From Lytechinus pictus (taxonomy: Eukaryota): a stretch of DNA of 64,000 nt. Location of the stretch: contig NC_087245.1 of the NCBI RefSeq assembly GCF_037042905.1, positions 13,642,001 to 13,706,000 of the forward strand. Direction: 5' to 3'. The notes beneath the pieces were generated by a model. The model saw only the letters and a list, made by a program, of their open reading frames with translations, did not search any database and was not told the origin of the DNA. Numbering within the stretch: position 1 is the first letter of the stretch; each line of letters starts with the position of its first letter. Of the stretch, positions 600 to 62,450 are shown piece by piece. The translations under genes were made by a program, and so were the position numbers.

Positions 600-1093
600 A
601 TAATGTCATCGATCAGGACCTGTCACCTGGAGCCTCCCTGAGTTGGGTTGGAACAACCTTTGTCATATTAGATCTATCCACAGTCAGCTGTAGCTCTCTC
701 GTCTACTTCTGCATCTTGGCTGAAAGGAACCCCGACTCTCAGAGAAAAGATCTATCACCTCTTAATTTCGATGTTAACTCGTACATCGTTTGTGAGCAGA
801 TAGAGTGTGTGGGGCTTGAGATCGACACACTGACACTTACCCACAACGCAGATCAAGGTGACCCTCTGCGGGAGTTGGTAACCGGCAACCAGGACTTCTA
901 CTTGGACCTGACCATTGATCCTCTTTCGACCAGCGGCGGTGTGTCGGGTAACTGGACATTTGATGTCTACTTCAGTGACATGCAAGACTGTTCGAGTACG
1001 CCTACCAGTCTTCCGACCATTACTGTTGTTCCCTCAATGAAACAAATCTACCAAGACGTGGATGGACAATTGGTCACAATTGAAGGGATTCAA
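600..1093 (+). CDS. Exon 1: C-half of repeat R0 and N-part of R1
   Basis: cag|AT...CAA|gtaagt; DNVIDQDL...CEQIECVGLEIDT...IEGIQ. Confidence 0.85.
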
Positions 1094-10000: not shown

Positions 10001-13000
10001 TGACAACTGGAAGCTGGATAGATACTGCAGTCCCCGCAGGCACCGCCACTTCGCTGACGGTGCCTGTAATGGTTGATTTATCAGGCCAGCTATGCATGGA
10101 TGTGAGTAAAATATCAGGAATAAAAGATTTAAATATGCCCAAATCGGATTGAGGTGAAAAGTATTTACCTTCAAATTACTGAATGAATTGATCCAGAGTA
10201 TTGCAATGTACTAGTCTTATTTCTTCCGGAAGAGATTTACGGCAGTGGGGATTTTTGCATTGGTAGTCTTGAACTTCCACCAAGGGATATAAAGTTCAAT
10301 TACACCAGCTTTATTCAATGTTTTCACAAACCACAGCACCAAACTTGACAAGGAGGCTTGGGCTGGAACCCACCTTTCTTGTTTTTAGAGTCATCAATGT
10401 TATCATTACTATCATTTATATGCTAGCCTTGATTATACTTTTAAAGCTCATAACCATGTATCTAGTATCCAAGATCTCAGAAAGGCCCTTAGTAAATGAT
10501 AATAATAAACATTATAATTGGACCTGATGTTCTGCAAGATTGTGATTGAATTTTTTTTTTCTCGAAAATTTCCTAGCTTATTTTAACCTTATTTTGTGCT
10601 TCTCATAGGTAAACTACCTTTGTGTTAGGATCCGTGAAGGAGTTAACCCATCCCCAATGGTAACCCTTCAGTACTCAACCGGCCCAGAGAATTTTATTGG
10701 TTGTGCCCCTGTCACTTGTGAGAGTAAGTACAAAGTTTTTTATTTCAGATTTGAGGCCCCATCACACCTACTCATTTTGGTTACAAAACATTTAGTGCAT
10801 GTTTAGTGTGAAGATTCCCACTGGAATAATCAAACAGTTCGGTTATGGTGTTTCTATCCAATGTCAAACCAGGCCATTGTATTGACTCAGCCCATATACT
10901 TCTTGCAAGGGTACCACTTCATGAGGTTCATTTCAATAAATTTGATATGTTATTACAGGGCTCATATGGGATAAGGGATTCCAGAAAAGTCAGGGAATTT
11001 TAAAAGTGTAATTTTTGCAGGTAATAGATTCAATTCTTTTTAAAATCTCTAATCACAGCTATTTTTCAAACATCCATTTATCAAAAAGTCATTTTGAAAT
11101 GAGGCCTGTGAAGAATGTGGGATTCCTATCAAGATCAGGGAATTAAGATCTTTTTTTACAAGCTAAATGACAATAAGTATGTAGCGTCTTCTGGAAGTCG
11201 TAGAAGACAATTTATTCAAGAAGGTTACAGGTGACCAACCATCCTCCAGTTAGCAAAGATGTGCTTGGGTTGCCACAACGTGAGTAAGAACTGGTTTTGG
11301 AAGTCTTAACTATTCAGATCTTTATTCTCTGGAAAGCAAGTGAATTTGGGGGAATGCTTTTATGATGTTTTATATCATTATTTATGTTATGTGTAATCAC
11401 AGCTGCTGGAATCGAGCGCAACGGCTTTTCCTTCACCCCCATGAGGGTTGTTGAGCACCAAGTGGATCCTCAACCCTTTGATATCTCCGTGTCTTACATC
11501 TCTGAACCTGGTCGTGACAACATCACCGGAGCTGACCTCTGGAGTCTGACCGTCTTCTTCAGTGACTCTGAAAATGGGACCAACCCTGCAGTGGAAACCA
11601 AAGTTGATCTTGGCTCTCTCACCGATGCTCCTTTCTATTCTGGCCAAACCTTGAACTTCACCAATCTCAATGTGAATGTATCGTTGGAGGACTTCACCTG
11701 TTACATGCCCACGTACCTCTGTAGCCAGTTGGCAAAAGGAAACCCATTGAATGATTTTTACACACTTGAAATTAGACCAGATTGCCAGCCAATTCAGTGT
11801 GCTGGTAAGTTGATCCTTGTTTTTCTCTTCATTTCTTCTTATGCCTTGTGAAAGGAAGCACTTGTCTATTCTAATATGTGAATGCAATGTATCATGCATT
11901 GTCTACTGATAATTAACTGACCTTAAGATTTATAGCCACATGCTAAATAGAACATTCCTAAAAGAATATGTCCTTGTGTCCACTGTGGCACCATAAATCA
12001 AAGTTCAATGGACACCTGATCATTTTAGATTGTAAGAAAGATGCCAATGTTGTTACTTGTCTATATAAAGGCACTTTCTTTCGTGAACAGGCTATCCCAA
12101 AAAGGATGGTATTCTTTTGTTTGGTGTGCAAGCCCCATTTTATCTACAGGGTTCCCAGCCCATCATGGAAAGTTTTTTTTTTCCAGTCAGGGAAAAATCA
12201 GGGGATTTGATAAAACATACCTCAAATGAGGTAAAATCAGGGAATTTTGATCAGCCCAAAAGTCGAAAGCACGGTAGTCAGTCAGACTCTGGTATATTTT
12301 GTTGCATATCAAAACAACATCCATTGAATGACTGGTTATGGTGGTACTAATTAGTTTTTACTTTATTGTTTTATACTGAAAATACATGTAATTCACTGCA
12401 ACAACCTAGAAAACATGCAAAACTGGGAATGGGTTTGAATAATAATTAGGAAATTTTTTAACTTCATCAGGGAAAAATTAGGGGAAAATCAGGGAATTTT
12501 GTTTTCTTGAAAAGCTGGGAACCCTGTATCTAACCAATTACCATGGTAACAGTGCTTCTCCCCCAACCAAAATCAAGGAAAGTTATCAAATCTGACAACT
12601 TGTTTGACAAAAATGTTGAGGAAATGCTCCCCTTATGAATGTGGAGGAGCCGTGGTGTAGTGGTTCTGACTCTCGCCTTGTAAACAGAGGGTCGTGGGTT
12701 TGAATCCCACCACGGTCTGGCATCCTTTTGCAAGGCGTTAATCCACACTTTGCCACTCTCCACCCAGGTGCTAAATGGGTACCCGGTAGGATGTGAAAGT
12801 CATTGTAGCTTGTCCAGTACTGTGTGCGCCTTACCGGCGACTGACTGGAATACTCCCCAGGGAGTGGAGGATGTGCACACATTGTGTGCGGGAATGATTG
12901 ATTATTGAATCCGATGACCGGGTAATAATATATCTGTAAAGCGCTTAGACACGTCGTTCAGATGTATTAAGTGCTATATACATGTAAAAGCGGATTATTA

Positions 13001-16000
13001 TTATATTATTATTATTATAATGGTCTTGGCCATTCTTCACCATGACTTGTAGCATGAATATAGCTCAGCGTCTTTCCCAGTCTCCCATTGTATTTTGGTC
13101 TATGCAGAAACTGAGGAATAAAAGATAATAAGACACTTAGCAAGACTTACAAATCTGCAGCTAAAAGTACCCTAGAACTCTAATGTGCCCTTGTGGTCCG
13201 CTCACAGATTCAAACTTGACTGCAGTATAGACAGGAACAAAAGCTACATGTACAATTCACCTCATCTCTGTTTATTCAATACAGGTATTGCACTGAACTC
13301 TACAGAGGTATCAATCAATTCTGGCCAGCTGCTGTTTGAGTTCCAAAGCTCTCAGAGTTCAAGTCTAGATGTTACGCTGTATAGCCTCCAAGAAGGTGCT
13401 AGCGTCGAAGGCACCGACCTTTGGAACTTCACTGTCTTTTTGAGCAACAGTGATACCATGTTCACCAACAGGAAAGCAGTGCTGGTAGGTTGCAGTGTTC
13501 ATTTGATGAATTATAATTGATTCTGATAGGTATATTGAATAGTGCATTGCTGCATCAAATTATGAATACTGTTATTTATATTTAACCCTATCCAGGCCAG
13601 GAGGGGGGTGGCCTCGGAGGCCCCCCCCCCCCTCAAGGATTCATGCAATATTTTCGCCATGAAATTTTTTGACCGCGCCACTCACTGACTTTTTACTTTC
13701 AAGTCTTGCACAACTTTTGAGACCAGTTTTGCATCACCCGAGTACGTGGTTCCAAAATTACGCAACATTATGTAAGTGCATGTCAGACCAAAAATTGCTC
13801 AAAACATGATTTCGTATACAAAGTCAATGCAAATTGTGTTTTCAACCAAAAATTATGAATGTATAATCTCAAGGGGGGCCTGGGAGGACTCCCCCCCCCC
13901 CCCCCCCCCGGCCATATGAACTCCCAAAATACCCCGGCCTAGATAGGGTTAATTGAATCAGGTACTGTGGAGCATTTAATATAAACCCGTTTATAAAGAC
14001 CACTTGCCTATGTAGAGCACATTTCACATCTCCAATGAGTGGTCTTCATACCCAGGTGGGTGTTTCATAAAGCTGTTCGTAAGTTAAGAGCGACTTTAAG
14101 AACGACTGGTGATCCTTTCTTATGGCAAATGGTGTATTCATTAGCGATGGTTTTGCGCGTAAGAAAGGATCACCAGTCATTCTTAAAGTCGCTCTTAACT
14201 TACGAACAGCTTTATGAAACGGCCCCCTGGTTTCATTATATGATGGTTCTTTCTGTATTTGCTTTGACAGACCACAACCACTTACACATCAAGTGGCAGT
14301 CCTCTGGAAGCTGGCACACCCCTGTCTGTCACCGGTTTGACATCTCAGCTGGATCTTGAAGGGGTCGGCTGTGTTGATTTCCAGTACATTTGTGTTGAGG
14401 TTGACGTGGGAATCATGGCTGTGCCATCTTTCAATGTAGACCTTCAGAGGCCTGATGCTAACATTGGATGTGCTCCAGTGGATTGTCGAGGTGAGAGTTT
14501 TCCGCCATTTTTAATCCCTTTTTATGAGAAAAAACACTCAGCCACAGTTACGTTCTCTTTGTTACTACATCGTATTAGAGAATTAATTCACTTCTTAAAT
14601 TTGAGAAGTAGTTTTGGTCTATGAATTAATACTTTCAACAAATTGTATGTGCAGTCTTATTTAATTGCTACACGATTCCTTGAAAAAATCGTCTCTGTTA
14701 TCAACATTGCTCATCTACATACATGGAATTCAGAACAATTACTGATAAAGTACAGAGTCCCATCTTACAAAGAGTTGCGATTAATCTGATCAATGGCAAC
14801 TATGGAAGGCCAGCAACATCATCATCTAAAATACATGTTTGGTCAAAATATTTTCTAGAAATTATGTATATACATTCACTGTTTTCTTGAAAATTCGGTA
14901 TGCTCTTGTTTTTAGAGGACATTGAGCAGATTAACTATAGAAAAAATTATGACATTAATGGATTTCCAGATACTTGAGATTGTTCGAATCAATCGTATAT
15001 CTTTGTAAGACAAAATCCCATTCATGCTTTATATCCAGACAAAATGGAAGAAATTTCTTGAATTTTTTTTCAACTTTCAACCTTTATATCTTTCATTTGT
15101 AAGGTGTGGTAATAAGCAGTGCTAATTTGGACGTCTCTGATGGCAATATCCTGATTGAGCGAGTTGATGAGCACAATGTCACCTTCAGTGTGTCTCTTCA
15201 GTTCAGCGATGATAGCACCGATGTCTATGGTACAGACCTATGGCAGGCAACGATCTTTACCAACAGTGGGGAGGGTTGCAGTGATACCCCTTGTGCTTCG
15301 GCGATACCTGTCGCGCTCAATGGCAATGTGACCAGAGGTCAGATGGTGACTACGGAGAGTGCCACCGTGTCCTTGGACGTGTCTCAGTGCACCTGTCCCG
15401 AGATGCAGTATCTGTGTCTGCTCATCACCATGAACCCTGATGCCGGTGTCAACTTCACCCTTGAAATTCCAGCACAGGGCTTTAGAGATCAGCAAAAGGT
15501 CACTTGTACAGGTGAGGCGTTGAATCTTTGGAGATCAGGGATTCTGTAACAAGAAGTTTAGCAGTTTAATCGCACAACAGAATTCATGAGTGATTGCATT
15601 GACTACTATGTAAAGTCGATCGTGAAAATCAGTTATCTACAATCAGTAATTGAGCTTTGTATTTAGGGGAACCAAATCTGAATCCTTACATCTTTTATTA
15701 AGTTCTTCTGTGTAGCATTACCTTTGTTTAAGAGGGAAATTGAAGACTGAATCATTTCAACCCTCTGGGTTTCTCTCCTGTAAAAAAAAAGAATTACCTT
15801 GATAACTATTCTTCCTTAGACAAAATTATGTAAGCATGCATAATACTAAACATAAAATGCCTTTTTACATGTCGTAGATGAACAAGTATAAAATTAGCAA
15901 TGTTTCGTTCTGATCAGGGTGACAAGAGCACGTTGAGCTGTTCAAGCATGTCACCCTCGCGTGTTGCAATGAAGACATGCATGTACACTTTCCCTTGGCA

Positions 16001-19000
16001 GATGGCTGATCCATATAACATCATCCTCATCATCAATCTGACCATGTTTGCTTACAGAGCCAGTGTTAATATCTTTATATGATACAGGTGCAGTGATTGA
16101 TGACGTGAGCCTGTTAGTGACCAATGTTGAACCTGTCATTCTGATTGAAGGCGACACACTGAATGTAACTGCTAATGTTAACTTGACTGTGGCTGATGTG
16201 TCAGCTTCGATAGGTAAGCCGGATGATCATTCTGTATCATCTTTGTCTTTAGTGTCTTTTTCCTCATTGCTGTAGAGAATAATTTCAGTTTTTCTTCCAT
16301 TCATGCAAGTCTTACAAAACATTGAATATAAATAGTTTTTTGTTATTTTCTACTCAGACTTCTCCTATATCTGTATTAAGAGGAAAAAAAGGGAAATAGT
16401 GCGAATCATTTACACATTTTTGTAAGTCTGATGATGGGTGAACAGAATTCAGCCCGTTCTAACCATTTTTACCAATCCTTCCTACCTTCTGTTTGCATCG
16501 ATTGAAAACAAGTGCACCATACTCTGTTGAGTGCACGGTGTAAAAGCCTAATGGTAGATGATCATAATTTGCCTGCAGACAAATCTAGGTGGAAAGAGGG
16601 CTAAAATTGCCAACTTTAGAATTCCATAACCAATCAGGAGAGGGTTGAACATACCCCAGTTCATATGTTAGTAACAAGTCATAATCACAGAGGCAGGTTC
16701 CACAATAGCACACTACCTATGTCTCATATACAACCAAGTATATATCATTTTTCCAATGTTATGTTTATATCTCATATATATGTCTCATAATAATTGGAAG
16801 TGTTGTGATGTAATGATTTGGACTCACGTTGTGTGAACAGGGGATAGTGAATCCCACTGACAAGGTGTCAGTCTACACTTTGCTTGTCTCCACCAATGTG
16901 TTCAATGGGTACCCAGCATGATCGGAAAGTCAACTGATATGCCTTGCATTTGAGCTCTGAAGCTCTTGTTAAAATGCTCTCCAGGGAACGGAGAAAGTGC
17001 ATATCACTCATACCAACAAGTCATAATCTGATGACTGGTTTATGATGTATGTGTATCTGTAAAGTGCTTATATGGTAATTAATAATATTTATAATAATTG
17101 TACATTTATATTGCACATTTTTTATAAGTATATACTCAACTGCACATTACACTAATGTTATTGCCCCGGCTTTAAGCCATGCTGCCTGCAGATGCTCAAG
17201 CATTCAAGGAATTTCTTTCTACCGGATAGCCATTTACCTCACTCAGGTTGATTGCAGCACAATATGGGTAAATTTCTTGCTGAAGAAAAACATGTCATTA
17301 CTGGGAATCAAACCCACGTCCCTCAGGTAGAAAGAGTTACAACCTCTAGACGATGACGCATTCCAAAAATATCATCATTGCAATTATTATTATTATTATC
17401 ACCATATCTCAGATGCATCTGTAACTAACATCTGGCAGATTGAGCTCTATCCGGCATCTGATCCAATGCGTTATCGAGTACCTGCAACCTTGACGACGGA
17501 GCAAAGAGACCAGGGATTTAACGCAAGTGATGTTCTCAAATTTGATGATCTCTTTTTTGAATTCGGAACGCGCGACTTTGTGTGCCCCGAGGGAGATTTT
17601 GAGGATCTCTGTATTCAAGTCAGTGCTTCACCGAGTATTACCCCTGCTGTATCGATTGCCATTTACCAGGACGGTATCGTCTGTATCACAGTTCCATGCA
17701 GAGGTAAATCATATTCTTTTATATCCTTGACAGAGAAGTAGGGGGAAGGGGAGTAATGTCTGGGTGAAAAATAAAATCTTCAGAATTCACAAAATCTGTA
17801 CATCAAATGGCACAGGCAGTTATCAAAATGGAGTAATATTTCAAGCATTACTGGTAAATGTACTTCTAAACCATTTATGAAATACTGCTTTCAATTTTCT
17901 TTAAATTGTCATCTTGTCTAGATTAACAACTTTCCCACACAAGCACATTGCTCATAATTACTGGTAAAGATTTCAGAAATATAAAAGTAAAAGTGATTCC
18001 CCATTCTTTTCACGCCATTTGGAATAGAAACCATAGTAAAAAGCCCTTTTAATTTTTTTTTCGAAAACCAAAAAAACTAAATTTGTACTGTATGTGTAAA
18101 GATTTAACAGCATGTGATAAGTGTGTTTGTCTGTTTGTATGGAGTGTTGACCAGATTCCACCGAAACAAGCCAGTGTTCATTATGGTAGACTACCTTTGA
18201 TTTCAGCACTAATATCAGAAAAAAGGCCCTAACAAAACCATCATTATTTTGATGAAATATAATGAAATTGATCAAGTTCACAATCATTACGATATGCCAT
18301 GTAGCTTTTTGTGAGTGAAGTTATTGTCATGATAAAAATGTGGTTATTTTATTTATCATTTCAGGGGTTGCTTTTGACAATTTGATCGTGGATGAAAGAA
18401 CCGACTCCAGCTTTGTTGAGTTTGAATCTATGCACCGAATCATCTTCAACATCAGTGCAAACACCACAGAATTGAGTATCAACATCCCAAACGGCATCAA
18501 CCTCTGGCAAGTCCGCGTGTACGGAAGCTTGTACATGAATGGGACGGGAGAACGCTACAGCGAGACACACATTCCCATTGCGGATTCTAATGCCATGGTA
18601 ACGGCTGGTACCCCTGTGGAGTATACTGGTCTGGTGTGGGATATGGACCTGACAAATTTCACATGTCCAAGTTCAAACCAGTTCTTCATGTGTGTACAGT
18701 TGATGCCAGGGAATACACCTGTTCCACCTTTATCAATATCTCCTAGCCCGCTTTTAACTTGCGTTGAAATTGAGTGCACTGGTAAGTGTATACTCAAATA
18801 CAGTACCTAATAATAACAGTATATTTGAATAGTTCTTAATAGTGAGGATCTGTTTTAGAGCATAGTAGTATCATTATCATCCCAGCATTCTTGTCACATA
18901 TTTGTCCTGTGGAAATCGGTGTAGGTGAAAGCAGTTTGGCACAATTTTCAGTTAAACCAAGATTTGGTCCACTTAAGTGACAAGACAGGATATTCTTTGG

Positions 19001-37969: not shown

Positions 37970-38007
<38 letters not shown>

Positions 38008-56000: not shown

Positions 56001-59000
56001 TTGAGGTTGGCTCACAACATACATTAATATCATTGTCTAGCAATCTTGTTTCTTAACAAAATAGATCTCTTATAATTTTGGTGGTTTTAAAGTGTAATTT
56101 ATGCACTTATTCATTGATGCACTGTAACCATTTCACTATTACTTATTACCTATGAGTTTTATCCTAAGTTAACTCCAATTGCCAGAACCTCTTTCTCTCT
56201 CTCTCTTTTAAATTTTCTTTGATCACATTTCATTTCATTGTTGTATTGTATATTTATATGATAGAAGTATTGGATTCCTGGTTCACCATCCCCATCATCA
56301 TCTATGGAGTCATCATCTTCTTCATTATGATATTCCTCATCCTATGCTGCCTTTCAGCTGGTCGTCATCGTCGTAAGAAGGTCAAGAGGTAAATGAATAA
56401 TCACTTTCCATGAAAAAATAGTCTTCACAGCATTGATATGATTTGTCATAGATTTAATGGAAAATACACAAAGATTAAATATTCATATTCATTCACATAT
56501 AATGAATATCTGCCATTGACTTTCATAGAAAAGTTGGTATTTGAATACCACGTGGTAGGAATATTCATGATGCATTTCGATTTTTCTTTAATGACCATAA
56601 AAAGATGCTTTATAATTTACAAGGAAACTAGAAATTAGACTTCAGCTTTAAGATTTCAGTTTAATTTAATGATCTTTGTGTACTTTGTGTAATTACTATA
56701 CACAGTCTGACTGCCCTATATATGAGAGCTCCTGACCTTGATTTATCACAAATTGAGTCGTTCATGCAGTGTAGTAAGAATGAAGAAATATTTGGGTTGA
56801 ACATAGTCATCAAAAGGTCAATAAATTTATTGAATAACCCCGGTGTATTTTTACAGCGTTGTCATAGTTATGATGTACATGTGTAACAGCTCTTGATAAA
56901 AAAAATTGTCAAAGAATTTATGATGTATTGGAATGACAAAGTGACATAATAATAGTGATGAATAATAATTGGCTTGATATAGCGTGATTCCAGACTATGA
57001 CTGCTCAAAGCATTTATTAACAATTATTTTGTATTTGTCTTTGCTAGCTCACCTGGACCAAGGAAAGCACGTGGCTTCCACTCACCCAAGCAAGAATCTC
57101 GGTTCAATGATAATCACAACAACTCTTCATACAGACACCCAAAGCATAGCAAAGCACCTCCTGCTATCCTCTCACGGTGAGTCAATATTTTAGCTCTTAA
57201 AGATAAATACCAGTTGTGGTAATGATCTCAAAATGAGTTCGAACAGAATCCAATGAAATGACCACCAAAGTGTTTGTATGTATAGATAAAAAATTATGTG
57301 CCAAATAGATCTTAAAGAAAATGCGTAATTGCTGAGAAATGAGCAAAATAAGCACGGATATCCATTAAATGTCGGGTATTTTTCGAAGCAATATTAATAC
57401 ATTGTTCCACATATGCTTTTCCATGTTAGTGATCATCAGAATTATCAATTTTTGAGCTAAGATTTCATGATTTTACAAAGATAATTTACATTAATGTACC
57501 AGATCTAGATGTATTATGATATTTTGACAATTAACCTTGGTTTAAAAGACTTTCTCATGAAATTATTCTTTGCTGCAACTACTGTCCTTTACCTTTAAAG
57601 CCCATGAAAGATTATACTGGTCTGCAGATCTAAAATGTCAAATCGCCTGCCTTGAGTTTAAAGATAGGTATGTGAGAAAATCAGGCATTTCACTCATGAT
57701 TTCTTACGAAATTAACTATATTCTTTCACTATTGCCCCTTTGGCTCCAAGCATATGAATGTGTGAATAGAGATTTAAACACTCGAACAAAGATTGATGTT
57801 ATTACTAATGAAGGCAGTGATATTTTAATCTTACAGGCCTGTTCTGAGTTCTCAGTTTGCTCTTCACTACAATGAGATGATTGCCAACAAACAGCACAAG
57901 TTTACCTTGGAGTTTGATGTAAGTTGACAATCTAATTGATGGTAGGGGTTACGATGAGATGGAAGAGGAGGAGGACGATGATTATGTTGGTAATGATGAT
58001 GATGATGATGATGATAATGATGATGATGATGACAACGATGATGATGACAACGATGATGACGACGATGAAAATGATGATGGTGATGATGACAACGATGATG
58101 ATGATGACAATGATGACGGTGACGATGAAAATGATGATGATGATGAGGATAATGAGGATTATGATAATGATTATGATTGTAATTGTGATGAGGAGGAGGA
58201 TGTTGATAATGGTAATGGTGATGCTGGTGATGGATATGATAATGATTTGTATTTGAAGACACATGATTTTGATATTTCTGCTGGATATTTGTAGATCCTT
58301 ATGAGAATAATAACAATAATGAGTAATGAAGATGGCAAATTCGTTTTAGTTTTATCATGCATAAAAATATTTTGTGAGCTAAATTATGTTCCCATTATAG
58401 ACATTAAGTTCGTATTTCTCCATGCTATTCTAAGATCTCTCATATTGCAAGATTGATAAATGATAGGATAAATTATCTCTTTAAAATGTCTTTTCCATCA
58501 CTCAGGATCTTCGGAACATTGGTCAAGACTTGTCAAAGTCAGAAGGAAGACATTTGGAAAATAAAAACAAAAACAGATTTGGAAACATCTTGCCGTGTAA
58601 GCAATATTTCCTATTCTATCCCTTCTTCTTCGAAAGTATTTTATCACTGTTTCTATTTCCATCTTTTTAATTCCTTCTCTGTGTATGTCTACATCATTTT
58701 TTTACTCTATACAGCTTCTTCCTATGTTTTGAACAGCAAAACTACAAAAAAAGCGTGTGAAGTGTTATAAAAGCATTACTGTTCGAAAGAAATAGTCATC
58801 ATTATTAGTCATAAGCGAATTTTCCTGTGGGCTAAAATGAATGCCTGGACATTTGATAAATTCAGCCTATCATTTAGTTTAAATCCATATCCCTATTTTA
58901 TAATATCTCTTTATTATTATTATTATTATTTTATTCGGCATTTCAACAAAAACAGTTTACAATCAATTTACAAGAGAATATCCAATTACAAGTGAAAAGG

Positions 59001-62000
59001 GATGTTTACAAAACAAGTCCTGGTTGCCTGGAAAAGGAAAAAGTTAAATAAATAACTGTAGCCCGCAGGCTTTCCTCCCCGACCTGGACTTGTATGTTAA
59101 CACCCCAAGAATAAAAACATATATATAGATTATTATATTAATACAAACAATAATTCATATAGAAAAAGCATATTGAAATTGATTTGTATAAGAACAATCA
59201 AATATAGTGTGATTAGAAACGTAATTACAGGACAACTTAAAGAAGGTGTAGTAAATTGGTATTTAGATATACATTTAAATTGGCCAGGTAAATATAAACT
59301 TTAAAATGAAGTACATTGTATTGGGAAAGATGTATAAGCAGTAATCATTATACATCTTATTCAAATAACTCAGACCGTAAGCTTCGTAGCCATGGATTTA
59401 AAGATCTGCAGACCAGGACAAACTCGTTTCGTAGACTAGGCGTTAATTCCTCCCACACTCTTGGGAAGTAGTGGATTGGGGAGCAGTGCAACCTTTGGGT
59501 CCTAGCCAGCAGGTGTCTGAACAATAGATTTTCTTGATGATGGTCATTAATGATTGTTTTGGAGATTATAATAATAGAATCAATTTGTCTGTACAGGGAC
59601 TTGGCAAAAAACGAAATCAATAGAAATTTGCGTCTAGTAGCCAGTGTTGGCCATTCTAAAATACGAAAACGGTCTGCTTTAACACCATACGGGTGGCTCT
59701 CCTTTGCAGAGACTCAATTCTGTATCCATGATTGAAAATCAGAAGGCCTGAACTAAAAAACAGTGATTTTGAGAAAGAGGTGGTTGCTAATTTTCTGTCA
59801 ACCATATCTATTGAGATGTGACAAAGTGTTATTTTGTTACCAAAATCTCAAAATGGTCAAAAAGTGAGTCAAGTCCTTTTGCATATCAACCCTTGATATG
59901 ATTTCTCTCAAACTTTCCTTCCATTTGAAATCTTCAGACAATGAAACCAGGGTGTCACTCAGTGGATCTCAGGATTACATCAATGCAAGCTTTATCTCTG
60001 TAAGTACATGTCTGTAATGATGATTTCAAGTGTCAGTGTTAGTTTTAGTGTTGATTTTGGTGTTGAGAACTTAAATCTGGCTGCCTAGTCTAGCTCCAAT
60101 ACTGGATGTTGGTTAATTATGATACTTATCATACAATCAATAGCTTAAGACCGTGTGATATTAGTCCTAGCAATAGCCCTTATTTCAGCTTTGGTACTGT
60201 GGCTGGTGATGTTCAGATAACCCAACACCTTCCCCTGCTGTCAACACCAAGCTTTAAAGCTTTAAAGTCTCATGATAAAACTATCATGCAGACTCACCTT
60301 GACAAATGGCTTTCGATTTCTTTACTATGCAAGAGCTTGTAACCCCGACCCGGGCGTCTCGGACATTGTTGGTGACTTAGTGACCCTTGGCTATTTTTCA
60401 GAGGGGAATATCATGCCTGGTTAAATAGTCAGCCATGTAGTAGTAACACTGAAATTATACATGTATATGCATTTCATCATCATTGCCCCTGAAGTGAGAT
60501 GCTCTCCTATGTTTTAAGTGTCACACTGTTGTACCATCTTCAAGTATAATTTGGAACAAGTCAGGATAATTGATTTAACCCTAAACAAGCAAAAGCTTCT
60601 TATTGGTACTATAACTCATACCCAACATACAACAACAAATTTCTGACATATGTCAAGGATTAAGTATCCCAGACAACATTCAAGACACTTCTTCCTCCCT
60701 AACACATATACCTTTTGATTCTTCATTTGTCATTTTTATGGCGATTAACTTGAGAACTTCTTTTGGTATGACACCAGGGTTTCAACAAGGCCAAGGAATA
60801 CATCACTACCCAAGGACCAATGACAAACACTGTCAATGAGTTCTGGAGGATGGTTTGGGAGAAGGAATGCCCAGCCATTGTCATGCTGGTTCGCTGCATT
60901 GAAGGTGGCAAGGTGAGTTAATAGGTTTCCAAGAAAATGGTGGTGGTGGTGGTGGACATAATGAAGATGATGGAGTGATGAATTGGGGGGGGGGGGTGAT
61001 GTTGTTTGTATTTGTGGAGCGTTGTGGCCCAGTGGATTAGTCTTCTGACTTTGGAACAGAGGGTGGTGGTTCGAATCCCAGCCATGGCGTAATTTCCGTC
61101 AGCAAGAAATTTATCCACATTGTGCTGCAATCAACCCTGGTGAGGTGAATGGGTGAATGCATGAGCGCTGAAAGGCAGCTCGAGCTAAAGCTGGGGTAAT
61201 AATAATAATAACATCGCGCCTTGGAATAGAATATTTCTAGATAGATGGCGCTATATAAATTTCTATTATCATTATTATTATTATTATTAATGGTGTAATG
61301 TGTCATGTTGATGGATGATGGAAATGATGATGGTGTTGGTGATGAAGATGATAGAGGTTATGATGGTAGGGTGATGATTAATTTATGGCTGGACTGTTGT
61401 GTCAAATATGTTGATACTTTACTCTCAAAGTATTTAGGTATGCTTAATGTGAATATGATATGAAAATTCCCATGGTCCTGATAATCAACGCCATGTTTTG
61501 TTAATTCTTTGCAGGAGAAGTGTGATAAGTATTGGCCAGTCAGTGCAGATCCAACTGTCTTTGGTCAGGTGATTGTTACCAAGCTCGCAGAACACAACCA
61601 TGATAGCTGGGCCATCAGAGACTTCAGACTCAAAGTGGTACGAGTTGTTTCTATTAATTTTCATTGCCATTCTAAAATGATTAATAGCTTGTTGATCATT
61701 TACAATACTCCAAATATAAATAAGCCTAGTTTGTGTTTTAAGCTTAGGTTTACTTTGTACCTTCCTTTCTTGAATGGGTCACATAATATTCACTCATTGG
61801 GGGGCATTTAATAAAACAAATTAGTCATTGATTTTCAGTGATTTGTTTGTTGTAAGCTACTAAAATCATTGCATTTGATTGGTTCAAAATAACTAAGCCA
61901 GTGAAAATCACTTGATTTCTTCATGAAACCCTCCTCGTGATAATTTTAGGAACTATTCAGAATCTTCTTACTGCAGAAACTGGTTGGATTACTAAACACG

Positions 62001-62450
62001 TCATCAGACCCAAGGATTACTCTGATTACAGTGATGACCAGACTTTTCACTAGAATAGTTAATCTGGTCTGACATATTTTACATCTTTGGGCTTGTATTA
62101 ATGAACAAAGATATAAGTCAGGAGTTGGGGGTGGCACTAGGGTTCCCATATTGATGCAAACGCCACTGTTTTCCTGAGGGGCACCCCTGAAGGAAAATTG
62201 TCACATTCATGTCACATCTCATTCCATTTTGTTCATTGCTAATTCAGACAAAATCAGATATTTTAGTTGATTCACCTTCCTTTGCCTCATGACAGGGAAA
62301 TGAAGAACGTCTGCTTCGTCAATACCACTTCATTGCCTGGCCAACCCACAGCACACCCAAGGTTAGCAGACCAGTGCTAAGCTTTGTGAAAAACATCAGA
62401 GACGAGTTAGCATCGGCCAAGCTCAAAGGACCACTTGTCATCCATTGTGG
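600..62450 (+). CDS. Giant receptor-type protein tyrosine phosphatase (R3/PTPRQ-like) gene, partial at both ends, 60 exons: >=24.5 unfamiliar Cys-containing repeats + 6 FN3 + juxtamembrane domain + TM + PTP domain
   Basis: All 60 exons have AG/GT boundaries and compatible phases; summed length 13,381 nt with no stop; PTP motifs KNRF, DYINAS, TQGP, FWRMVWE, IVML, KCDKYWP, VIHC; hydrophobic TM followed by basic residues. Confidence 0.9.
1932..2061 (+). CDS. Exon 2: end of R1
   Basis: cag|GTG...AAAG|gtaagc; VKVDLSRFACSSAPYMC...YNCK. Confidence 0.85.
2249..2394. mobile_element. Short palindromic MITE
   Basis: Terminal inverted repeats GGGCCCGTTGCAGAAAGA ... TCTTTCTGCAACGGGGCCC. Confidence 0.6.
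2389..2656. mobile_element. MITE; a related copy lies in opposite orientation at ~14755-15020
   Basis: GGGCCCTGTCTTACAA ... TTGTAAGACAGGCCC inverted ends; internal sequence matches the reverse complement of 14755-15020. Confidence 0.6.
4027..4723 (+). mobile_element. Non-autonomous Helentron-associated (HINE/DINE-1-like) element, family A copy 1
   Basis: T-run, subterminal IR GTCTCGCCTGCAT with adjacent short IR, internal ~120 bp repeats, ATGCAGGCGAGAC, short hairpin and CTTGTT end; second copy at 26901-27544. Confidence 0.65.
4777..5013 (+). CDS. Exon 3: R2 N-part
   Basis: cag|GA...ATAG|gtaatc; GINLVADS...GPLWTASFFFS. Confidence 0.85.
5538..5738 (+). CDS. Exon 4: R2 C-part
   Basis: cag|AT...CACG|gtaagt; TCANMQWLCV...ACLQITECH. 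Confidence 0.85.
5787..6365. mobile_element. Non-autonomous DNA transposon with TTAA target duplication and AGG...CCT ends (Kolobok-like)
   Basis: TTAA-AGGACAAGTCCA ... TGGACTTGACCT-TTAA; long imperfect TIRs. Confidence 0.7.
7070..7397. mobile_element. MITE with CAGGGTTCC termini (hAT-like)
   Basis: CAGGGTTCCCACAG ... CTGTTGGAACCCTC; subterminal GTCATGGAA repeats. Confidence 0.55.
7560..7789 (+). CDS. Exon 5: R3 N-part
   Basis: cag|GT...CAG|gtgggg; GVEIEET...SGINLWSLEIF. Confidence 0.8.
8142..8340 (+). CDS. Exon 6: R3 C-part
   Basis: cag|GAA...AAAG|gtaagt; PCALNNYLCV...ACVNLNCK. Confidence 0.85.
9173..9388 (+). mobile_element. Short HINE-like element
   Basis: T-run + ATGCCCG ... CGGGCAT subterminal IR, AGGTCAAAGGTCA core, hairpin and CTTGTT end. 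Confidence 0.45.
9785..10101 (+). CDS. Exon 7: R4 N-part
   Basis: cag|GA...GAT|gtgagt; GIIVTD...GLWQLDVF...QLCMD. Confidence 0.85.
10609..10723 (+). CDS. Exon 8: R4 C-part (absent from ORF track)
   Basis: tag|GTA...GAGA|gtaagt; VNYLCVRIREGVNPSPMVTLQYSTGPENFIGCAPVTCE. Confidence 0.85.
11403..11804 (+). CDS. Exon 9: complete repeat R5
   Basis: cag|CT...GCTG|gtaagt; 402 nt, phase 1-1. Confidence 0.9.
12147..12526. mobile_element. MITE with 13-bp perfect TIR and 6-bp flanking direct repeat (hAT-like termini)
   Basis: TATCTA-CAGGGTTCCCAGC ... GCTGGGAACCCTG-TATCTA; subterminal TCAGGGAA repeats. Confidence 0.7.
12643..13019 (+). mobile_element. tRNA-derived SINE, family 1
   Basis: A box TGGTGTAGTGG, B box GGTTTGAATCCC, body CCACCCAGGTGCTAAATGGGTACC, (ATT)n tail; other copies near 16800 and 23180. 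Confidence 0.85.
13285..13484 (+). CDS. Exon 10: R6 N-part
   Basis: cag|GT...CTG|gtaggt; GIALNST...GTDLWNFTVFLS. Confidence 0.85.
13582..13952. mobile_element. piggyBac-like MITE
   Basis: TTAA-CCCTATCCAGGCC ... GGCCTAGATAGGG-TTAA. Confidence 0.75.
14053..14229. mobile_element. Foldback MITE (possibly PIF/Harbinger-type), copy 1
   Basis: Near-perfect ~65 bp inverted arms TTTCATAAAGCTGTTCGTAAGTTAAGAGCGACTTTAAGAA...; CAG/CTG flanks; second copy at 44562-44740. Confidence 0.75.
14271..14490 (+). CDS. Exon 11: R6 C-part
   Basis: cag|ACC...CGAG|gtgaga; LEAGTP...GCVDFQYICV...GCAPVDCR. Confidence 0.85.
14755..15020. mobile_element. MITE related to 2389-2656
   Basis: TCTTACAAAGAG ... TCTTTGTAAGA inverted ends and shared internal sequence. 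Confidence 0.55.
15104..15511 (+). CDS. Exon 12: complete repeat R7
   Basis: aag|GT...ACAG|gtgagg; 408 nt, phase 1-1. Confidence 0.9.
16088..16213 (+). CDS. Exon 13: R8 N-part
   Basis: cag|GT...ATAG|gtaagc; GAVIDDVSL...SASI. Confidence 0.85.
16797..17080 (+). mobile_element. Degenerate SINE family 1 copy
   Basis: Similarity to 12643-13019 (CTCCACCAATGTG..AATGGGTACCC; AATGCTCTCCAGGGA; ATCTGTAAAGTGCTTA). Confidence 0.6.
17091..17363 (-). mobile_element. Degenerate tRNA-derived SINE, family 2
   Basis: Matches 51116-51385 (CCATTTACCTCAC..GGTTGA.TGCAGCACA..AAATTTCTTGCTGAAG). Confidence 0.65.
17413..17703 (+). CDS. Exon 14: R8 C-part
   Basis: cag|AT...AGAG|gtaaat; NIWQIELY...VCITVPCR. Confidence 0.85.
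18365..18781 (+). CDS. Exon 15: complete repeat R9
   Basis: cag|GG...ACTG|gtaagt; 417 nt, phase 1-1. Confidence 0.9.
19583..19785 (+). CDS. Exon 16: R10 N-part with RRRR site
   Basis: aag|GT...ACG|gtaaga; GVYIST...DLWKLTILICENDNCAASARRRRAT. Confidence 0.85.
20995..21232 (+). CDS. Exon 17: R10 C-part
   Basis: cag|AAT...AGAG|gtaagt; NPNALVEI...YLCV...TCQPLQCR. Confidence 0.85.
22209..22613 (+). CDS. Exon 18: complete repeat R11
   Basis: tag|GT...ACAG|gtacat; 405 nt, phase 1-1; GVHIQSS...SGTNLWDIEIF...ACFEYPCT. Confidence 0.9.
22890..23135 (+). CDS. Exon 19: R12 N-part
   Basis: tag|GT...CCTG|gtaggt; GVLVSAT...DAWHIQVF. Confidence 0.8.
23178..23470 (+). mobile_element. SINE family 1 copy
   Basis: TGTAGTGGTTCTGACTCTCGCCTT, TTTGAATCCCACCA and CCACCCAGGTGCTAAAT shared with the 12643 copy. 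Confidence 0.75.
24646..24828 (+). CDS. Exon 20: R12 C-part
   Basis: cag|GC...ATTG|gtaaga; YCANVNYLCV...ACTAVDCI. Confidence 0.85.
25329..25480 (+). CDS. Exon 21: R13 N-part
   Basis: tag|GA...AAG|gtcaga; GVRINSS...VSGTNIFGVK. Confidence 0.8.
26319..26607 (+). CDS. Exon 22: R13 C-part
   Basis: tag|ATC...AGGG|gtatgt; IFLSNDG...SCPPMLYLCA...ACEIVECR. Confidence 0.85.
26901..27544 (+). mobile_element. HINE-like element, family A copy 2
   Basis: Colinear with 4027-4723, including the GTCTCGCCTGCAT / ATGCAGGCGAGAC IRs and CTTGTT end. Confidence 0.65.
27642..28040 (+). CDS. Exon 23: complete repeat R14
   Basis: tag|AT...AAAG|gttggt; 399 nt, phase 1-1. Confidence 0.85.
28690..28923 (+). CDS. Exon 24: R15 N-part
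   Basis: cag|TA...GTTG|gtgagc; VTEIDSS...GDELWRIV. Confidence 0.85.
29291..29479 (+). CDS. Exon 25: R15 C-part
   Basis: cag|GC...CAAG|gtaatt; DCASMPYLCV...ICKENVRCQ. Confidence 0.85.
30046..30362 (+). CDS. Exon 26: R16 N-part
   Basis: cag|GT...AGG|gtaggt; GIVITNN...PWMVTIF...LVCPQR. Confidence 0.85.
30609..30720 (+). CDS. Exon 27: R16 C-part
   Basis: tag|GAT...CACG|gtaaga; DIYLCAEFNKNASRESDFTLDFQSPSVRYAMREVACH. Confidence 0.85.
31667..31941 (+). CDS. Exon 28: R17 N-part
   Basis: cag|GC...ATG|gtatgt; GVEISST...SGADLWSFLIY. Confidence 0.85.
31877..32106 (+). repeat. Diverged local tandem duplication (offset 126 bp) of the 3' end and donor of exon 28
   Basis: 31877-31980 aligns without gaps to 32003-32106. 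Confidence 0.85.
32497..32647 (+). CDS. Exon 29: R17 C-part
   Basis: cag|GTG...AGAG|gtaaga; ECIEMPYLCM...DCFMLDCR. Confidence 0.85.
33180..33409 (+). CDS. Exon 30: R18 N-part
   Basis: aag|GT...CAG|gtatta; GVYIDEF...SGSNLWEIF. Confidence 0.85.
33745..33860. mobile_element. 116-bp hAT-type MITE with perfect 8-bp TSD
   Basis: ATCATTAT-CAGTGGCGGACCGTGACCCGGAGGAGACAAAG ... CTTTGTCTCCTCCGGGTCACGGTCCGCTACTG-ATCATTAT. Confidence 0.85.
34309..34498 (+). CDS. Exon 31: R18 C-part
   Basis: cag|GAT...AGAG|gtatgg; TCENVMYLCF...SCVPIDCR. Confidence 0.85.
34914..35327 (+). CDS. Exon 32: complete repeat R19
   Basis: cag|GG...ATAG|gtcagt; 414 nt, phase 1-1. Confidence 0.9.
35660..35900 (+). mobile_element. 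Degenerate 3' end of an L2/CR1-group LINE
   Basis: Remnant coding GDGTFTVAS...ESFKKSLKTFLF followed by an (ATT)-rich tail. Confidence 0.5.
36016..36435 (+). CDS. Exon 33: complete repeat R20
   Basis: cag|GT...AGAG|gtatgt; 420 nt, phase 1-1. Confidence 0.9.
37046..37131 (+). CDS. Exon 34: R21 N-part (absent from ORF track)
   Basis: cag|GT...ACT|gtaagt; GVRVESLFINFMSGLPLLELTASHEVNFT. Confidence 0.8.
37845..38010. repeat. (GAT)n imperfect microsatellite
   Basis: Direct reading. Confidence 0.9.
38043..38358 (+). CDS. Exon 35: R21 C-part
   Basis: cag|CTG...AATG|gtaata; GEDLWSL...VCDSEFFLCV...VCRSFVCN. Confidence 0.85.
39205..39395 (+). CDS. Exon 36: R22 N-part
   Basis: tag|GT...TCG|gtaagt; GVNLTNA...GRDLWHFEFF. 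Confidence 0.85.
39621..39858 (+). CDS. Exon 37: R22 C-part
   Basis: cag|CCA...GCTG|gtaagt; SCDTPRYLCV...TCRPIECA. Confidence 0.85.
40784..40980 (+). CDS. Exon 38: R23 N-part
   Basis: cag|GA...CCG|gtaagt; GVKFVSV...GENLFQVDVF. Confidence 0.85.
41395..41574. mobile_element. Palindromic MITE-like element
   Basis: GAGTTCACT..GTTGCCAGTTTGCGCCA ... TGGCGCGAACTGGCAAC..AGTGGACTC inverted arms. Confidence 0.55.
41920..42157 (+). CDS. Exon 39: R23 C-part
   Basis: aag|GTC...GCAG|gtaatg; SCSELSYIFV...LQPCA. Confidence 0.85.
42364..42953. mobile_element. Non-autonomous DNA transposon with TTAA TSD and ~190 bp TIRs (Kolobok-like)
   Basis: TTAA-AGGGGTGGTCCGGGCTGAAA ... TTTCAGCCCGGACCATCCCT-TTAA; shares GAAAATTTCATCAAAATC with 5787-6365. 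Confidence 0.8.
43012..43163 (+). CDS. Exon 40: R24 N-part (absent from ORF track)
   Basis: tag|GC...GAA|gtatgt; GIIVNSVIPTLNLGSNNILEGDSAHTFSFSVDVSTGNGIITDGTNEDWQLE. Confidence 0.85.
43229..43366 (+). mobile_element. Internally deleted HINE family A-like remnant
   Basis: GTCTCACCTGCATAGCAG ... ATGCAGGTGAGTC ends only ~100 bp apart. Confidence 0.45.
44027..44285 (+). CDS. Exon 41: R24 C-part (last repeat)
   Basis: tag|GTG...TTAG|gtaaca; GCDQFRYFCA...GCVSSQLTCL. Confidence 0.85.
44562..44740. mobile_element. Foldback MITE, copy 2 of 14053-14229
   Basis: Same inverted arms; CTG flanks. Confidence 0.75.
45257..45526 (+). CDS. Exon 42: FN3 domain 1
   Basis: cag|CA...CTAT|gtacgt; LTVEWEP...FTGLTPGNNYTVSI. 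Confidence 0.9.
45591..47041 (+). mobile_element. HINE/DINE-1-like element with a central tandem array
   Basis: T-run, GTCTCGCCCAC with adjacent IR, (GTCC)n microsatellite, 8 tandem units, GTGGGCGAGAC, hairpin, CTTGTT end. Confidence 0.7.
45663..46912 (+). repeat. Tandem array of 8 units of ~157 bp (144-162 bp)
   Basis: AACTC anchor recurs at 45673, 45830, 45988, 46145, 46307, 46464, 46614, 46758. Confidence 0.95.
48343..48651 (+). CDS. Exon 43: FN3 domain 2
   Basis: cag|AT...GCAA|gtaagt; ITVTWPRP...SSLTPAQSYVIEVRA. Confidence 0.9.
49526..49813 (+). CDS. Exon 44: FN3 domain 3
   Basis: aag|AG...ACAA|gtaatg; SVSLGWNSP...SSLLPGVEYSFTIQA. Confidence 0.88.
50407..50667 (+). CDS. Exon 45: FN3 domain 4
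   Basis: cag|CC...TCTC|gtaagt; PVPPQNI...TGLTAGTLYTYRV. Confidence 0.9.
50817..51092 (+). CDS. Exon 46: FN3 domain 5
   Basis: cag|GT...ACAA|gtaagt; PSPPREP...ITIVWE...LTGIDPYT. Confidence 0.9.
51116..51385 (-). mobile_element. tRNA-derived SINE, family 2
   Basis: Reverse strand A box TGGCCCAGTGG, B box GGTTCGAATCCC, (ATT)n tail; matches 61016-61290. Confidence 0.85.
51722..51852 (+). CDS. Exon 47: FN3 domain 6, part 1
   Basis: tag|GG...AGT|gtgagt; PDPVQNL...PNGFITGYLISY. Confidence 0.88.
52331..52441 (+). CDS. Exon 48: FN3 domain 6, part 2
   Basis: cag|GAT...TTT|gtaagt; IANLDPGVVYEFF. Confidence 0.88.
52904..53135. repeat. Degenerate ~25-bp minisatellite (approx. GCATTTGACCTGTTGTTCTTAATG)
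   Basis: Repeated TTTGACCT / TTCTTAATG units. Confidence 0.65.
53151..53217 (+). CDS. Exon 49: FN3 domain 6, part 3
   Basis: cag|GTA...GGAG|gttagt; VQAVNDEGTSDAESGLITLVAG. Confidence 0.85.
53678..53827 (+). CDS. Exon 50: juxtamembrane extracellular domain, part 1
   Basis: tag|AT...CACG|gtatgt; FSDVNGFVIAFQVFVVED resembles the FSDxNG motif of R3 RPTPs. Confidence 0.88.
54224..54461 (+). CDS. Exon 51: juxtamembrane domain, part 2, with RRKR site
   Basis: cag|CA...TACAG|gtacta; GRRKRQ...FTIGTETEC...CNGPLEPLTSYR (CNGPL motif of R3-type RPTPs). Confidence 0.9.
54540..54785 (-). mobile_element. 3' fragment of a CR1-type LINE ORF2
   Basis: Minus-strand RICNLWNCLPEFVVESRDVLQFVKRIDIWW matches the CR1 C-terminal WNxLP...FKxRLD pattern. 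Confidence 0.7.
55222..55510 (-). mobile_element. SINE family 2 copy
   Basis: GGTACCCATTCACCTCACCTGGGTCGAGTGCAGCACA..AAATTTCTTGCTGAAGGAAA..CCATGGCTGGG. Confidence 0.75.
55658..55725 (+). CDS. Exon 52: juxtamembrane domain, part 3
   Basis: cag|G...ACAA|gtaagt; ILVRAYTDGGFADSPWSDPIST. Confidence 0.88.
56265..56388 (+). CDS. Exon 53: transmembrane helix
   Basis: tag|AA...AAGAG|gtaaat; WFTIPIIIYGVIIFFIMIFLILCCL followed by basic RHRRKKVK. Confidence 0.9.
57048..57176 (+). CDS. Exon 54: cytoplasmic juxtamembrane linker
   Basis: tag|C...TCACG|gtgagt; phase 2-2; SPGPRKARGFHSPKQ...PPAILSR. Confidence 0.75.
57197..57598. mobile_element. Probable TTAA-flanked MITE
   Basis: TTAAAGATAAATACCAGTTGTGG ... 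GCAACTACTGTCCTTTACCTTTAA imperfect inverted ends. Confidence 0.45.
57837..57918 (+). CDS. Exon 55: PTP domain N-terminal (wedge) region
   Basis: cag|G...GAT|gtaagt; RPVLSSQFALHYNEMIANKQHKFTLEFD. Confidence 0.88.
57950..58250. repeat. (GAT/GAC/AAT)n imperfect microsatellite
   Basis: Direct reading. Confidence 0.9.
58506..58596 (+). CDS. Exon 56: PTP domain, pTyr-recognition loop
   Basis: cag|GAT...CCGT|gtaagc; DLRNIG...ENKNKNRFGNILP. Confidence 0.9.
58911..59560 (-). mobile_element. Probable degenerate LINE 3' remnant with (AAT)n tail
   Basis: (TTA)n at 58911 and minus-strand ARTQRLHCSPIHYFPRVWEEL resembling a LINE ORF2 C-terminus. Confidence 0.35.
59938..59999 (+). CDS. Exon 57: PTP domain motifs 2-3
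   Basis: cag|AC...TCT|gtaagt; YNETRVSLSGSQDYINASFIS. Confidence 0.92.
60778..60912 (+). CDS. Exon 58: PTP domain motifs 4-6
   Basis: cag|GGT...AAG|gtgagt; [31 protein letters not shown]. Confidence 0.93.
61016..61290 (+). mobile_element. tRNA-derived SINE, family 2
   Basis: GGAGCGTTGTGGCCCAGTGG A box, GGTTCGAATCCC B box, GCGCTATATAA and (ATT)n tail. Confidence 0.85.
61515..61637 (+). CDS. Exon 59: PTP domain motif 7
   Basis: cag|GAG...GTG|gtacga; EKCDKYWP...WAIRDFRLKV. Confidence 0.9.
62296..62450 (+). CDS. Exon 60: PTP domain WPD-loop region and start of the catalytic signature
   Basis: cag|GGA...TGTGG|gtaagt; RQYHFIAWPTHSTP...GPLVIHCG. Confidence 0.92.

Follow-up and report, generated by a model that had tools for sequence, protein, structure and literature searches.

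In the portions of the literature consulted, SURF (sea-urchin fibrillar) modules have up to now been treated as parts of secreted sea-urchin collagen-fibril proteins. According to the accessible text of PMC2852846 and PMC10817530, these 'four-cysteine modules' sit between VWC and procollagen's minor triple helix, and the same portion of PMC10817530 places the SURF-bearing 5-alpha N-propeptide on the surface of fibrils, the 2-alpha N-propeptides, once cleaved, around the edges of fibril bundles, and fibrosurfin in between the fibrils. Receptor-type protein tyrosine phosphatases (RPTPs) of the R3 kind (PTPRB, PTPRJ, PTPRH, PTPRO and PTPRQ; fly Ptp10D) have FN3 exons flanked by phase-1 introns, one transmembrane helix, a membrane-proximal PTP_tm-like domain, and an ectodomain described as consisting of FN3 repeats only. 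Here we describe a locus of the sea urchin Lytechinus pictus that joins the two: a window of 64,000 nucleotides (assembly GCF_037042905.1, contig NC_087245.1, positions 13,642,001 to 13,706,000) holds most of one + strand gene that encodes, in order, 24 complete SURF repeats and one partial one, then six FN3 domains and a juxtamembrane domain, followed by a transmembrane helix and most of a protein tyrosine phosphatase (PTP) domain. All positions below are numbered along this whole stretch.

The final spliced model has 60 + strand exons between 600 and 62450, all 59 of its introns are GT-AG, and its coding sequence of 13,358 nucleotides gives 4,452 codons with no stop. A preliminary description, made from the sequence alone, had proposed one giant receptor-type phosphatase gene with a single spliced frame of about 4,460 residues, open at both ends; the 60-exon open frame, with an AG before base 600 and a GT after base 62450, and a spliced transcript bear this out. 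The 60 exons are one transcribed gene, whose product is a type-I membrane protein and a receptor tyrosine phosphatase of the R3 kind, and we hold this with high confidence. The "at least 24.5" SURF modules span about 3,430 residues ahead of the FN3 domains, so that, unlike the R3 RPTPs described to date, this receptor has an ectodomain that is not built from FN3 repeats only. For the locus as a whole, an R3-type receptor with a SURF array that binds matrix and with an altered phosphatase seems to us the probable explanation.

Identity of the repeat

The repeats were collected with a hidden Markov model (HMM) that was started from the open reading frame (ORF) at 11366-11848 and iterated over six-frame ORFs of at least 25 residues until convergence. 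All 39 matches lie on the + strand, the - strand giving none, and they make up 24 complete repeats and one C-terminal half with a unit of about 135-140 residues, the same count of at least 24.5 that the first reading of the sequence had given. Each unit begins with G-V/I after a pyrimidine-rich acceptor and ends with C-x-G, the Gly codon being split by the donor (G/GTAAG and variants, the slash marking the exon border). Phase 1 is kept by all 23 introns between R1 and R24 and by the intron before the first FN3 exon, and R0 and R1 lie in one exon with no intron between them. Seven repeats are single-exon, and the other 17 have one internal intron at a varying position (13 in phase 0, 4 in phase 1). 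Exactly four cysteines are found in 20 of the 24 complete repeats, the remaining four having 6, 6, 5 and 2, and the four conserved Cys columns are occupied in 24, 23, 21 and 21 of the 24. Identity from repeat to repeat is only about 16-42%, with few conserved surface positions besides Cys, G and W.

Pfam returned no family for any repeat exon at an E-value of 0.01 or better, and a word-index homolog search with one repeat exon, confined to proteins of 283-2,000 residues and so excluding giant relatives, returned no match. A profile, A1, was built from an alignment of 41 pieces of the window. PDB sequences gave no match to it at E up to 10. Among 1.84 billion representative proteins, at least 500 match it at E 0.001 or better, the numbers at the stricter limits of 1e-10 and 1e-30 being 320 and 40. 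In fibrosurfin of Paracentrotus lividus (Q9GNU3; P0227) the profile finds 13 consecutive full-length modules with a total of 1,047 bits, each covering profile positions 1-136, each with exactly four cysteines, and each scoring 47-100 bits (independent E-values 1e-16 to 6e-33); a second protein with nine modules and EGF repeats (P0002) is 68% identical to fibrosurfin across the module region. In a 'collagen alpha-1(II) chain-like' protein of the starfish Acanthaster (P0005), seven matches at 138-1144 are followed by a collagen helix from 1174 and by COLFI, and a VWC domain at 72-123 scores 25.8 bits, slightly below the Pfam cut-off of 27.6. Because the profile matches the fibrosurfin modules, and those of P0005 at the published SURF position, the cysteine repeat of the window is, by sequence comparison, the SURF module of sea-urchin fibrillar collagens and fibrosurfin. 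The repeat, which the preliminary description took for an unknown one, is thus a known module.

Fibrosurfin shares with the window's protein the tandem four-cysteine modules, their length and their Cys pattern, but it is secreted into the matrix between fibrils, its SURF array is followed by EGF repeats, and it has no FN3 domain, transmembrane helix or PTP domain. The N-propeptides of the echinoderm 2-alpha and 5-alpha procollagens (P0005 being the one tested, with its seven modules) likewise carry SURF modules in tandem; there the chain is secreted and the modules stand between its VWC domain and its collagen helix, whereas in the window they form the head of a membrane receptor.

What fold the module has can be said in general terms. 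For R11, a single-exon repeat at 22209..22613, AlphaFold2 run on alignment A1 gave a model with eight strands, a pLDDT of 88.6 and a pTM of 0.80. Foldseek found no PDB structure at E 0.001 or better for this model, and its TM-scores of 0.3-0.5 went to assorted Ig-like, FN3-like and arrestin-like sandwiches; VIA-align gave Spo0M the top Z of 8.7, with the next values at 7.6 and below, which is within the range that the tool counts as common, and with many of 6-7 going to unrelated sandwiches; and the ESM Atlas gave a top score of 0.88 with CARDB-like clusters, all below the lead threshold of 0.9. As modelled, then, the SURF module is a generic Ig-like or arrestin-like beta-sandwich and nothing more specific. 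A rod length of more than 100 nm for the array is an estimate from domain count.

Among the listed profile matches, SURF modules also stand beside LDLa, Laminin B and Ig domains in perlecan-like proteins, and beside Sushi, HYR, SEA, Kazal, Kunitz and LDL-receptor class B domains. An 884-residue protein of Apostichopus (P0070) is a predicted receptor tyrosine kinase with VWC, two SURF modules and a kinase domain, and a 990-residue protein of Diadema (P0103) is a predicted adhesion G-protein-coupled receptor with two SURF modules, GPS and 7tm_2; the module therefore appears to serve several receptor classes besides matrix proteins. All 20 of the module proteins looked up by name (out of 150 listed, of at least 500) come from echinoderms or hemichordates. 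Since the profile finds at least 500 representative proteins with many domain partners, we think that the module, for which Pfam has no entry, deserves a curated family model.

Relatives with the same domain order

The fusion of SURF, FN3 and PTP domains, which the first reading of the sequence did not recognise and treated as unfamiliar, is not unique to this locus. The same layout is predicted in two crinoids, Anneissia japonica (P0001, XP_033114395, 5,459 residues) and Antedon mediterranea (P0164, 5,462 residues), each with 31 modules, FN3 domains, a transmembrane helix and a PTP domain, and in two hemichordates, Ptychodera flava (P0008, XP_070570607, 2,375 residues) and Saccoglossus kowalevskii (P0009, XP_002737754, 2,849 residues), each with six modules followed by fn3, PTP_tm and Y_phosphatase. 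All four are computer predictions named 'uncharacterized protein'. The window model is colinear with P0001, its residues 20-4452 aligning to 935-5363 of that protein in 4,592 columns with 29.8% identity, and if the layout matches that of P0001, about six or seven more modules would lie upstream of the window. The relatives share the domain order and, like the window, have all lost the WPD aspartate, but they differ from it by their identity of only about 30%, by their 31 or 6 modules as against at least 24.5 here, and by retaining the HCS and YD that read HCG and YN in the window. The search brought up no full-length relative above about 30% identity. Short fragments in the databases, 65-75% identical, match single-exon repeats. 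Among 53 other giant proteins that were returned with the C-terminal part of P0001, only P0164 has SURF modules. On the strength of these predicted sequences, a SURF-array R3-type RPTP is conserved in Ambulacraria.

One of these relatives has been in the literature for some time. In supplementary file 4 of Chicote et al. 2017 (PMC5336234), P0009 stands under the name 'AcornWorm', and the accessible text of the paper gives it WPI and places it near the PTPRQ cluster; the terms 'SURF module', 'SURF domain' and 'SURF motif' are absent from that text. A literature search, with most subscription journals lying outside it, never found these terms together with 'tyrosine phosphatase'. A sequence already used in an R3 phylogeny thus carries six apparently unnoticed SURF modules, and the ectodomains of R3-type RPTPs are not always FN3-only.

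The phosphatase domain

The usual PTP domain carries the motifs KNRY, YD, WPD and HCS, which have roles in catalysis and substrate binding. In the window the N-terminal 215 or so residues of such a domain are encoded by six + strand exons within 57837..62450 (57837-57918, 58506-58596, 59938-59999, 60778-60912, 61515-61637 and 62296-62450), which are placed by RNA joints and by a Pfam Y_phosphatase match on the exon ORF 61485-61808 and which end in VIHC plus GG. Their motifs read KNRF, NILPYN, WPTHSTP, and VIHC then Gly, so the domain is indeed atypical, as first described, with WPT for WPD, HCG for HCS and NILPYN. The window ends inside this first PTP domain. Because P0001, P0008 and P0009 end about 95-150 residues after the HC motif, each of them has a single PTP domain; here an RNA contig from run X1, described below, extends by arithmetic about 1,227 nucleotides past the window's last exon, a length that by itself leaves room for a second domain.

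In a tree of 28 PTP rows and 223 columns, the window's row falls inside a group of 24 R3 rows that is split, with support 95/85, from three LAR-type rows and one other. The R3-type part of what had been called a PTPRQ-like FN3-TM-PTP module is thus upheld by Pfam and by the tree; a specific kinship with PTPRQ is not, as the tree leaves that fork open. WPE is found in all five rows of the PTPRQ clade, and the window has WPTHSTP, neither WPE nor the usual WPD; a further row, from Sebastes (P0172), which its source calls PTPRQ, shows WPD and belongs to a PTPRB/eta-like clade. The SURF-RPTPs other than the window's group together as a clade of four (support 90/91), and when all five are held as a clade the approximately unbiased test gives p-AU 0.617, with a log-likelihood 3.55 above that of the free tree. 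This is consistent with one origin of the five SURF-RPTPs, and it is no proof of a clade. The WPD aspartate is absent in all five (T, A, A, I and I), and the other 23 rows have WPD (17), WMD (1) or WPE (5). HCG occurs in the window's row alone, the other 27 having HCS.

Because WPT lacks the general-acid aspartate and three other motifs depart from the usual, we think that the domain may be a weak, trapping or re-aimed phosphatase. Loss of the WPD aspartate turns PTP1B into a substrate-trapping mutant. That precedent also fits a stronger alternative, in which the PTP domain is catalytically dead and the protein, a pseudophosphatase, serves purely for adhesion or as a scaffold, docking phosphoproteins at most; the four altered motifs, with HCG set against HCS in every other row, and a long branch of 1.23 speak in the same direction. 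But the catalytic Cys is retained and the frame is intact across all six PTP exons, the relatives keep HCSAGVGRT and the Q-loop, and PTPRQ, with its WPE, is active on phosphoinositides according to the accessible text of PMC5336234. We regard a dead domain as somewhat unlikely.

A possible role at the collagen matrix

How might a SURF array and an altered phosphatase work together? We speculate that the array would bind collagen or a SURF-bearing matrix and so hold the receptor to the matrix over a long distance, while the PTP domain would act as a weak or substrate-trapping phosphatase, or on another substrate as in PTPRQ, and that the state of the matrix could thereby be coupled to signalling. 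This mechanism, a matrix-binding ectodomain with a weak or redirected phosphatase, is a possible one that we put forward tentatively. Its first step leans on the company that SURF modules keep elsewhere: because they sit on or between collagen fibrils, matrix binding is the most likely property of the array.

It is also conceivable that the array is a passive glycosylated spacer, a stalk or barrier with no specific matrix ligand. In favour of a spacer, the ectodomain has 63 N-x-S/T sequons, the repeats share little identity and few conserved surface positions, and the number of modules is 6 or 31 in the relatives and at least 24.5 here. Against this stands the location of SURF N-propeptides and fibrosurfin at or between fibrils (PMC10817530, in its accessible part), and we consider a spacer without a ligand unlikely.

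If the array of this protein does bind matrix, a receptor headed by 6 to 31 SURF modules becomes a concrete candidate for the contact between cells and the collagen matrix, a question that is still open for the mutable collagenous tissue of echinoderms. It is tempting to go further and to picture the SURF-RPTPs as ambulacrarian receptors that grip and sense SURF-decorated collagen fibrils with a rod on the 100-nm scale and a trap or lipid phosphatase within. We rate this wider picture as improbable as it stands; were it true, cells that control mutable collagenous tissue would be an example, the rod would engage procollagen N-propeptides or fibrosurfin, and SURF would be a large ambulacrarian family of extracellular domains, as yet absent from every domain library, that includes receptors (tyrosine kinase, adhesion G-protein-coupled and perlecan-like proteins among its members).

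Transcription across the SURF-FN3 junction

RNA was examined over 42500-62499 in four runs (X1, X15, X19 and X20). X19 and X20 are on record as stranded RNA-Seq, and about 6% of each was read; runs X1-X4 and X15-X18 contain 0.22-0.33 of the sampled words, and none of these eight is on record as RNA. The first record of the X1 contigs, 6,965 nucleotides long at a depth of 94.9, starts by arithmetic from the model within the second exon of R18. Its positions 2409-2665 (257 letters, 44027-44283) abut positions 2666-2937 (272 letters, 45255-45526), and it continues with 48343-48651, 49526-49813, 50407-50667, 50817-51092 and 54223-54457. The junction at 44285/45257 that was first proposed to join the repeat block to FN3 exon 42 in phase 1 is a phase-1 GT..AG intron in the model (44286..45256, + strand), and the X1 contig runs colinearly across it from exon 41 to exon 42; we read the 2-nucleotide offset as alignment ambiguity around that intron.

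Further GT..AG joints are listed at 45526>48343, 48651>49526, 51092>51722, 53215>53676 (cut +2), 57175>57836, 58596>59938, 59999>60778, 60910>61513 and 61636>62295. Raw reads of X19 or X20, 1-11 per run, show all nine of them except 48651>49526. The first mates of the X19 and X20 reads lie on the - strand, and the RNA is therefore taken to be + strand, as in most stranded libraries.

Several points weigh against reading the locus as one matrix-binding receptor with an altered phosphatase. The role proposed for the array rests on the behaviour of other SURF proteins, and the function of fibrosurfin itself is given as unknown in the accessible part of PMC10817530. The PTP residues after HC, including the P-loop arginine and the Q loop, lie outside the window, and the window's PTP branch, besides being long, has an open place within the R3 group in the free tree. 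Exon borders upstream of 44027 come from splice and HMM scoring alone and are model-based. The label of X1 and X15 as RNA is a guess, for which their spliced contigs argue, and the SURF-FN3 joint is bridged by one contig in one run, X1. In X15 the SURF side (depth 10.2) and the FN3-PTP side (depth 63.8) are separate contigs, and a shorter, SURF-less isoform may dominate there.

Taken to its end, this last point would mean two products from one locus, a secreted SURF-only matrix protein and an FN3-TM-PTP receptor made from an internal promoter, with the fusion as minor read-through. The unjoined X15 contigs with their unequal depths speak for such an arrangement, and so do the SURF arrays found in many secreted proteins. 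The X1 contig nevertheless joins both parts exactly at the GT..AG phase-1 intron; depth in the raw runs is similarly low on either side, with 1.3 and 0.42 in the bin of the last SURF exon and about 0.1-2.3 in the FN3 and PTP bins; no loose ends or read starts occur near 45257 among the rows listed; and the fused architecture is predicted in four relatives from two phyla. Two separate products are, in our judgement, quite unlikely. A pseudogene, or an artefact of assembly or annotation, is scarcely credible, because apart from a retroelement ORF that follows the last exon we found nothing in its support, and it would have to account for 4,452 codons in 60 exons without a stop, for spliced transcripts and for HMM matches that all lie on one strand. 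The single R3-type receptor with a SURF head remains our preferred reading.

Layout of the gene

The window is AT-rich animal DNA (GC 0.33-0.41) with many short + strand ORFs, and the introns of the gene measure 149-2,816 nucleotides with a median of 679, values taken before three exon borders were revised. Within the repeats, splice sites were picked by splice-site score together with the HMM score of the joined repeat, and the top candidates gave repeats of 133-146 residues. All of the following are on the + strand. R0, a C-terminal half matching HMM positions 47-115, occupies 600..814 behind an AG acceptor, and the gene continues upstream of it. R1 spans 815..2061 (part of exon 600-1093, and 1932-2061) and is the best splice and HMM candidate at 136 residues, and R2 (4777-5013 and 5559-5738) has 138 residues and four cysteines. 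The single-exon repeats besides R11, each placed by the HMM, are R5 (11403..11804), R7 (15104..15511), R9 (18365..18781), R14 (27642..28040), R19 (34914..35327) and R20 (36016..36435). Two exons each, set by splice and HMM scores as for R2, make up R3 (7560-7789, 8142-8340), R4 (9785-10101, 10609-10723), R6 (13285-13484, 14271-14490), R8 (16088-16213, 17413-17703), R10 (19583-19785, 20995-21232), R12 (22890-23135, 24646-24828), R13 (25329-25480, 26319-26607), R15 (28690-28923, 29291-29479), R16 (30046-30362, 30609-30720), R17 (31667-31941, 32497-32647), R18 (33180-33409, 34309-34498), R21 (37046-37131, 38043-38358), R22 (39205-39395, 39621-39858), R23, the repeat with only two cysteines (40784-40980, 41920-42157), and the last repeat R24 (43012-43163, 44027-44285), whose second exon is present as 44027-44283 in the X1 contig. 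At 31877-32106 lie 1.8 copies of a 126-bp unit, which take in the 3' end of the first R17 exon together with its donor and the first stretch of the intron; a second donor site could come from this local duplication.

Downstream, exons were set from RNA evidence or else by enumerating the canonical exon chains that fit the contig coordinates. FN3 domains 1-5 have one exon each (45257-45526, 48343-48651, 49526-49813, 50407-50667 and 50817-51092), all present as contig pieces, all bounded by phase-1 introns, and all matched as ORFs by Pfam fn3 with E-values from 8.5e-11 to 2.7e-6. A sixth, FN3-like domain is assigned to three exons (51722-51852, 52331-52441 and 53151-53217), the sole all-canonical chain that fits the contig's 459-nucleotide span with a sensible FN3-like sequence; taken as separate exon ORFs, these gave no Pfam match. 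Exons 51722-51864 and 53678-53814 had been considered and were dropped in favour of the all-canonical chain, since 54223 has no AG acceptor, and a candidate exon at 54602-54644 was discarded because X1 depth is zero in that bin.

The membrane-proximal ectodomain follows on 53678-53827, 54224-54461 and 55658-55725, placed by a contig piece (54223-54457) and by a weak PTP_tm match on the exon ORF 54073-54465 (E 0.003, 18.2 bits against a cut-off of 26.3, for the ORF and not the spliced protein); the corresponding match in P0008 scores 45.3 bits. This part carries an RRKR sequence, which may be a furin-type cleavage site. Some 199 residues separate it from the NILP motif that follows, as in P0001, and R-x-K/R-R precedes the PTP domain with similar spacing in nine of ten ambulacrarian R3-type proteins compared by distance, with or without SURF modules, the sole miss being P0169 of Amphiura. 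The transmembrane exon is 56265..56388 by its translation, with splice sites from the model only, and the predicted helix begins near residue 4161, with a basic stop-transfer stretch behind it. A cytoplasmic juxtamembrane exon at 57048..57176 is linked to the first PTP exon by the joint 57175>57836 (cut +1), which both contigs and 1 + 3 raw reads support.

Just 3' of the last PTP exon, presumably within the next intron, lies a retroelement fragment: an ORF of 457 residues at 62628-63998 (+) that leaves the window's end and matches Pfam RVT_1 at E 7.5e-37. Searched with Rfam at gathering thresholds, the whole window gave no match. Intronic microsatellites of the GAT/ATG type at 37807-38040 and 57923-58291 produce long poly-Asp and poly-Met ORFs in several frames and are non-coding in the model. 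By eye, similar ORF fragments recur in introns at 8737-8889, 12684-12905, 17079-17327, 23220-23420 and 51163-51393; those at 12684 and 23220 resemble each other, and dispersed SINE-like repeats are suggested. The intron between FN3 exons 1 and 2 holds a tandem array at 45672-46913 with eight copies of a period of about 157 (or 319/476) and about 90% matches. RNA depth over it greatly exceeds exon depth, reaching about 128 on the - first-mate side, and variant letters are numerous; a repeat with many copies that is transcribed elsewhere would be expected to look like this. Depth is also very high (up to about 750), with many loose ends, over the intronic segments 51116-51390, 55350-55410 and 61068-61210; joints of the 'opposite strands' kind tie 51243 and 55350-55368 to 61183, and the three segments resemble copies of a single dispersed repeat lying in either orientation.

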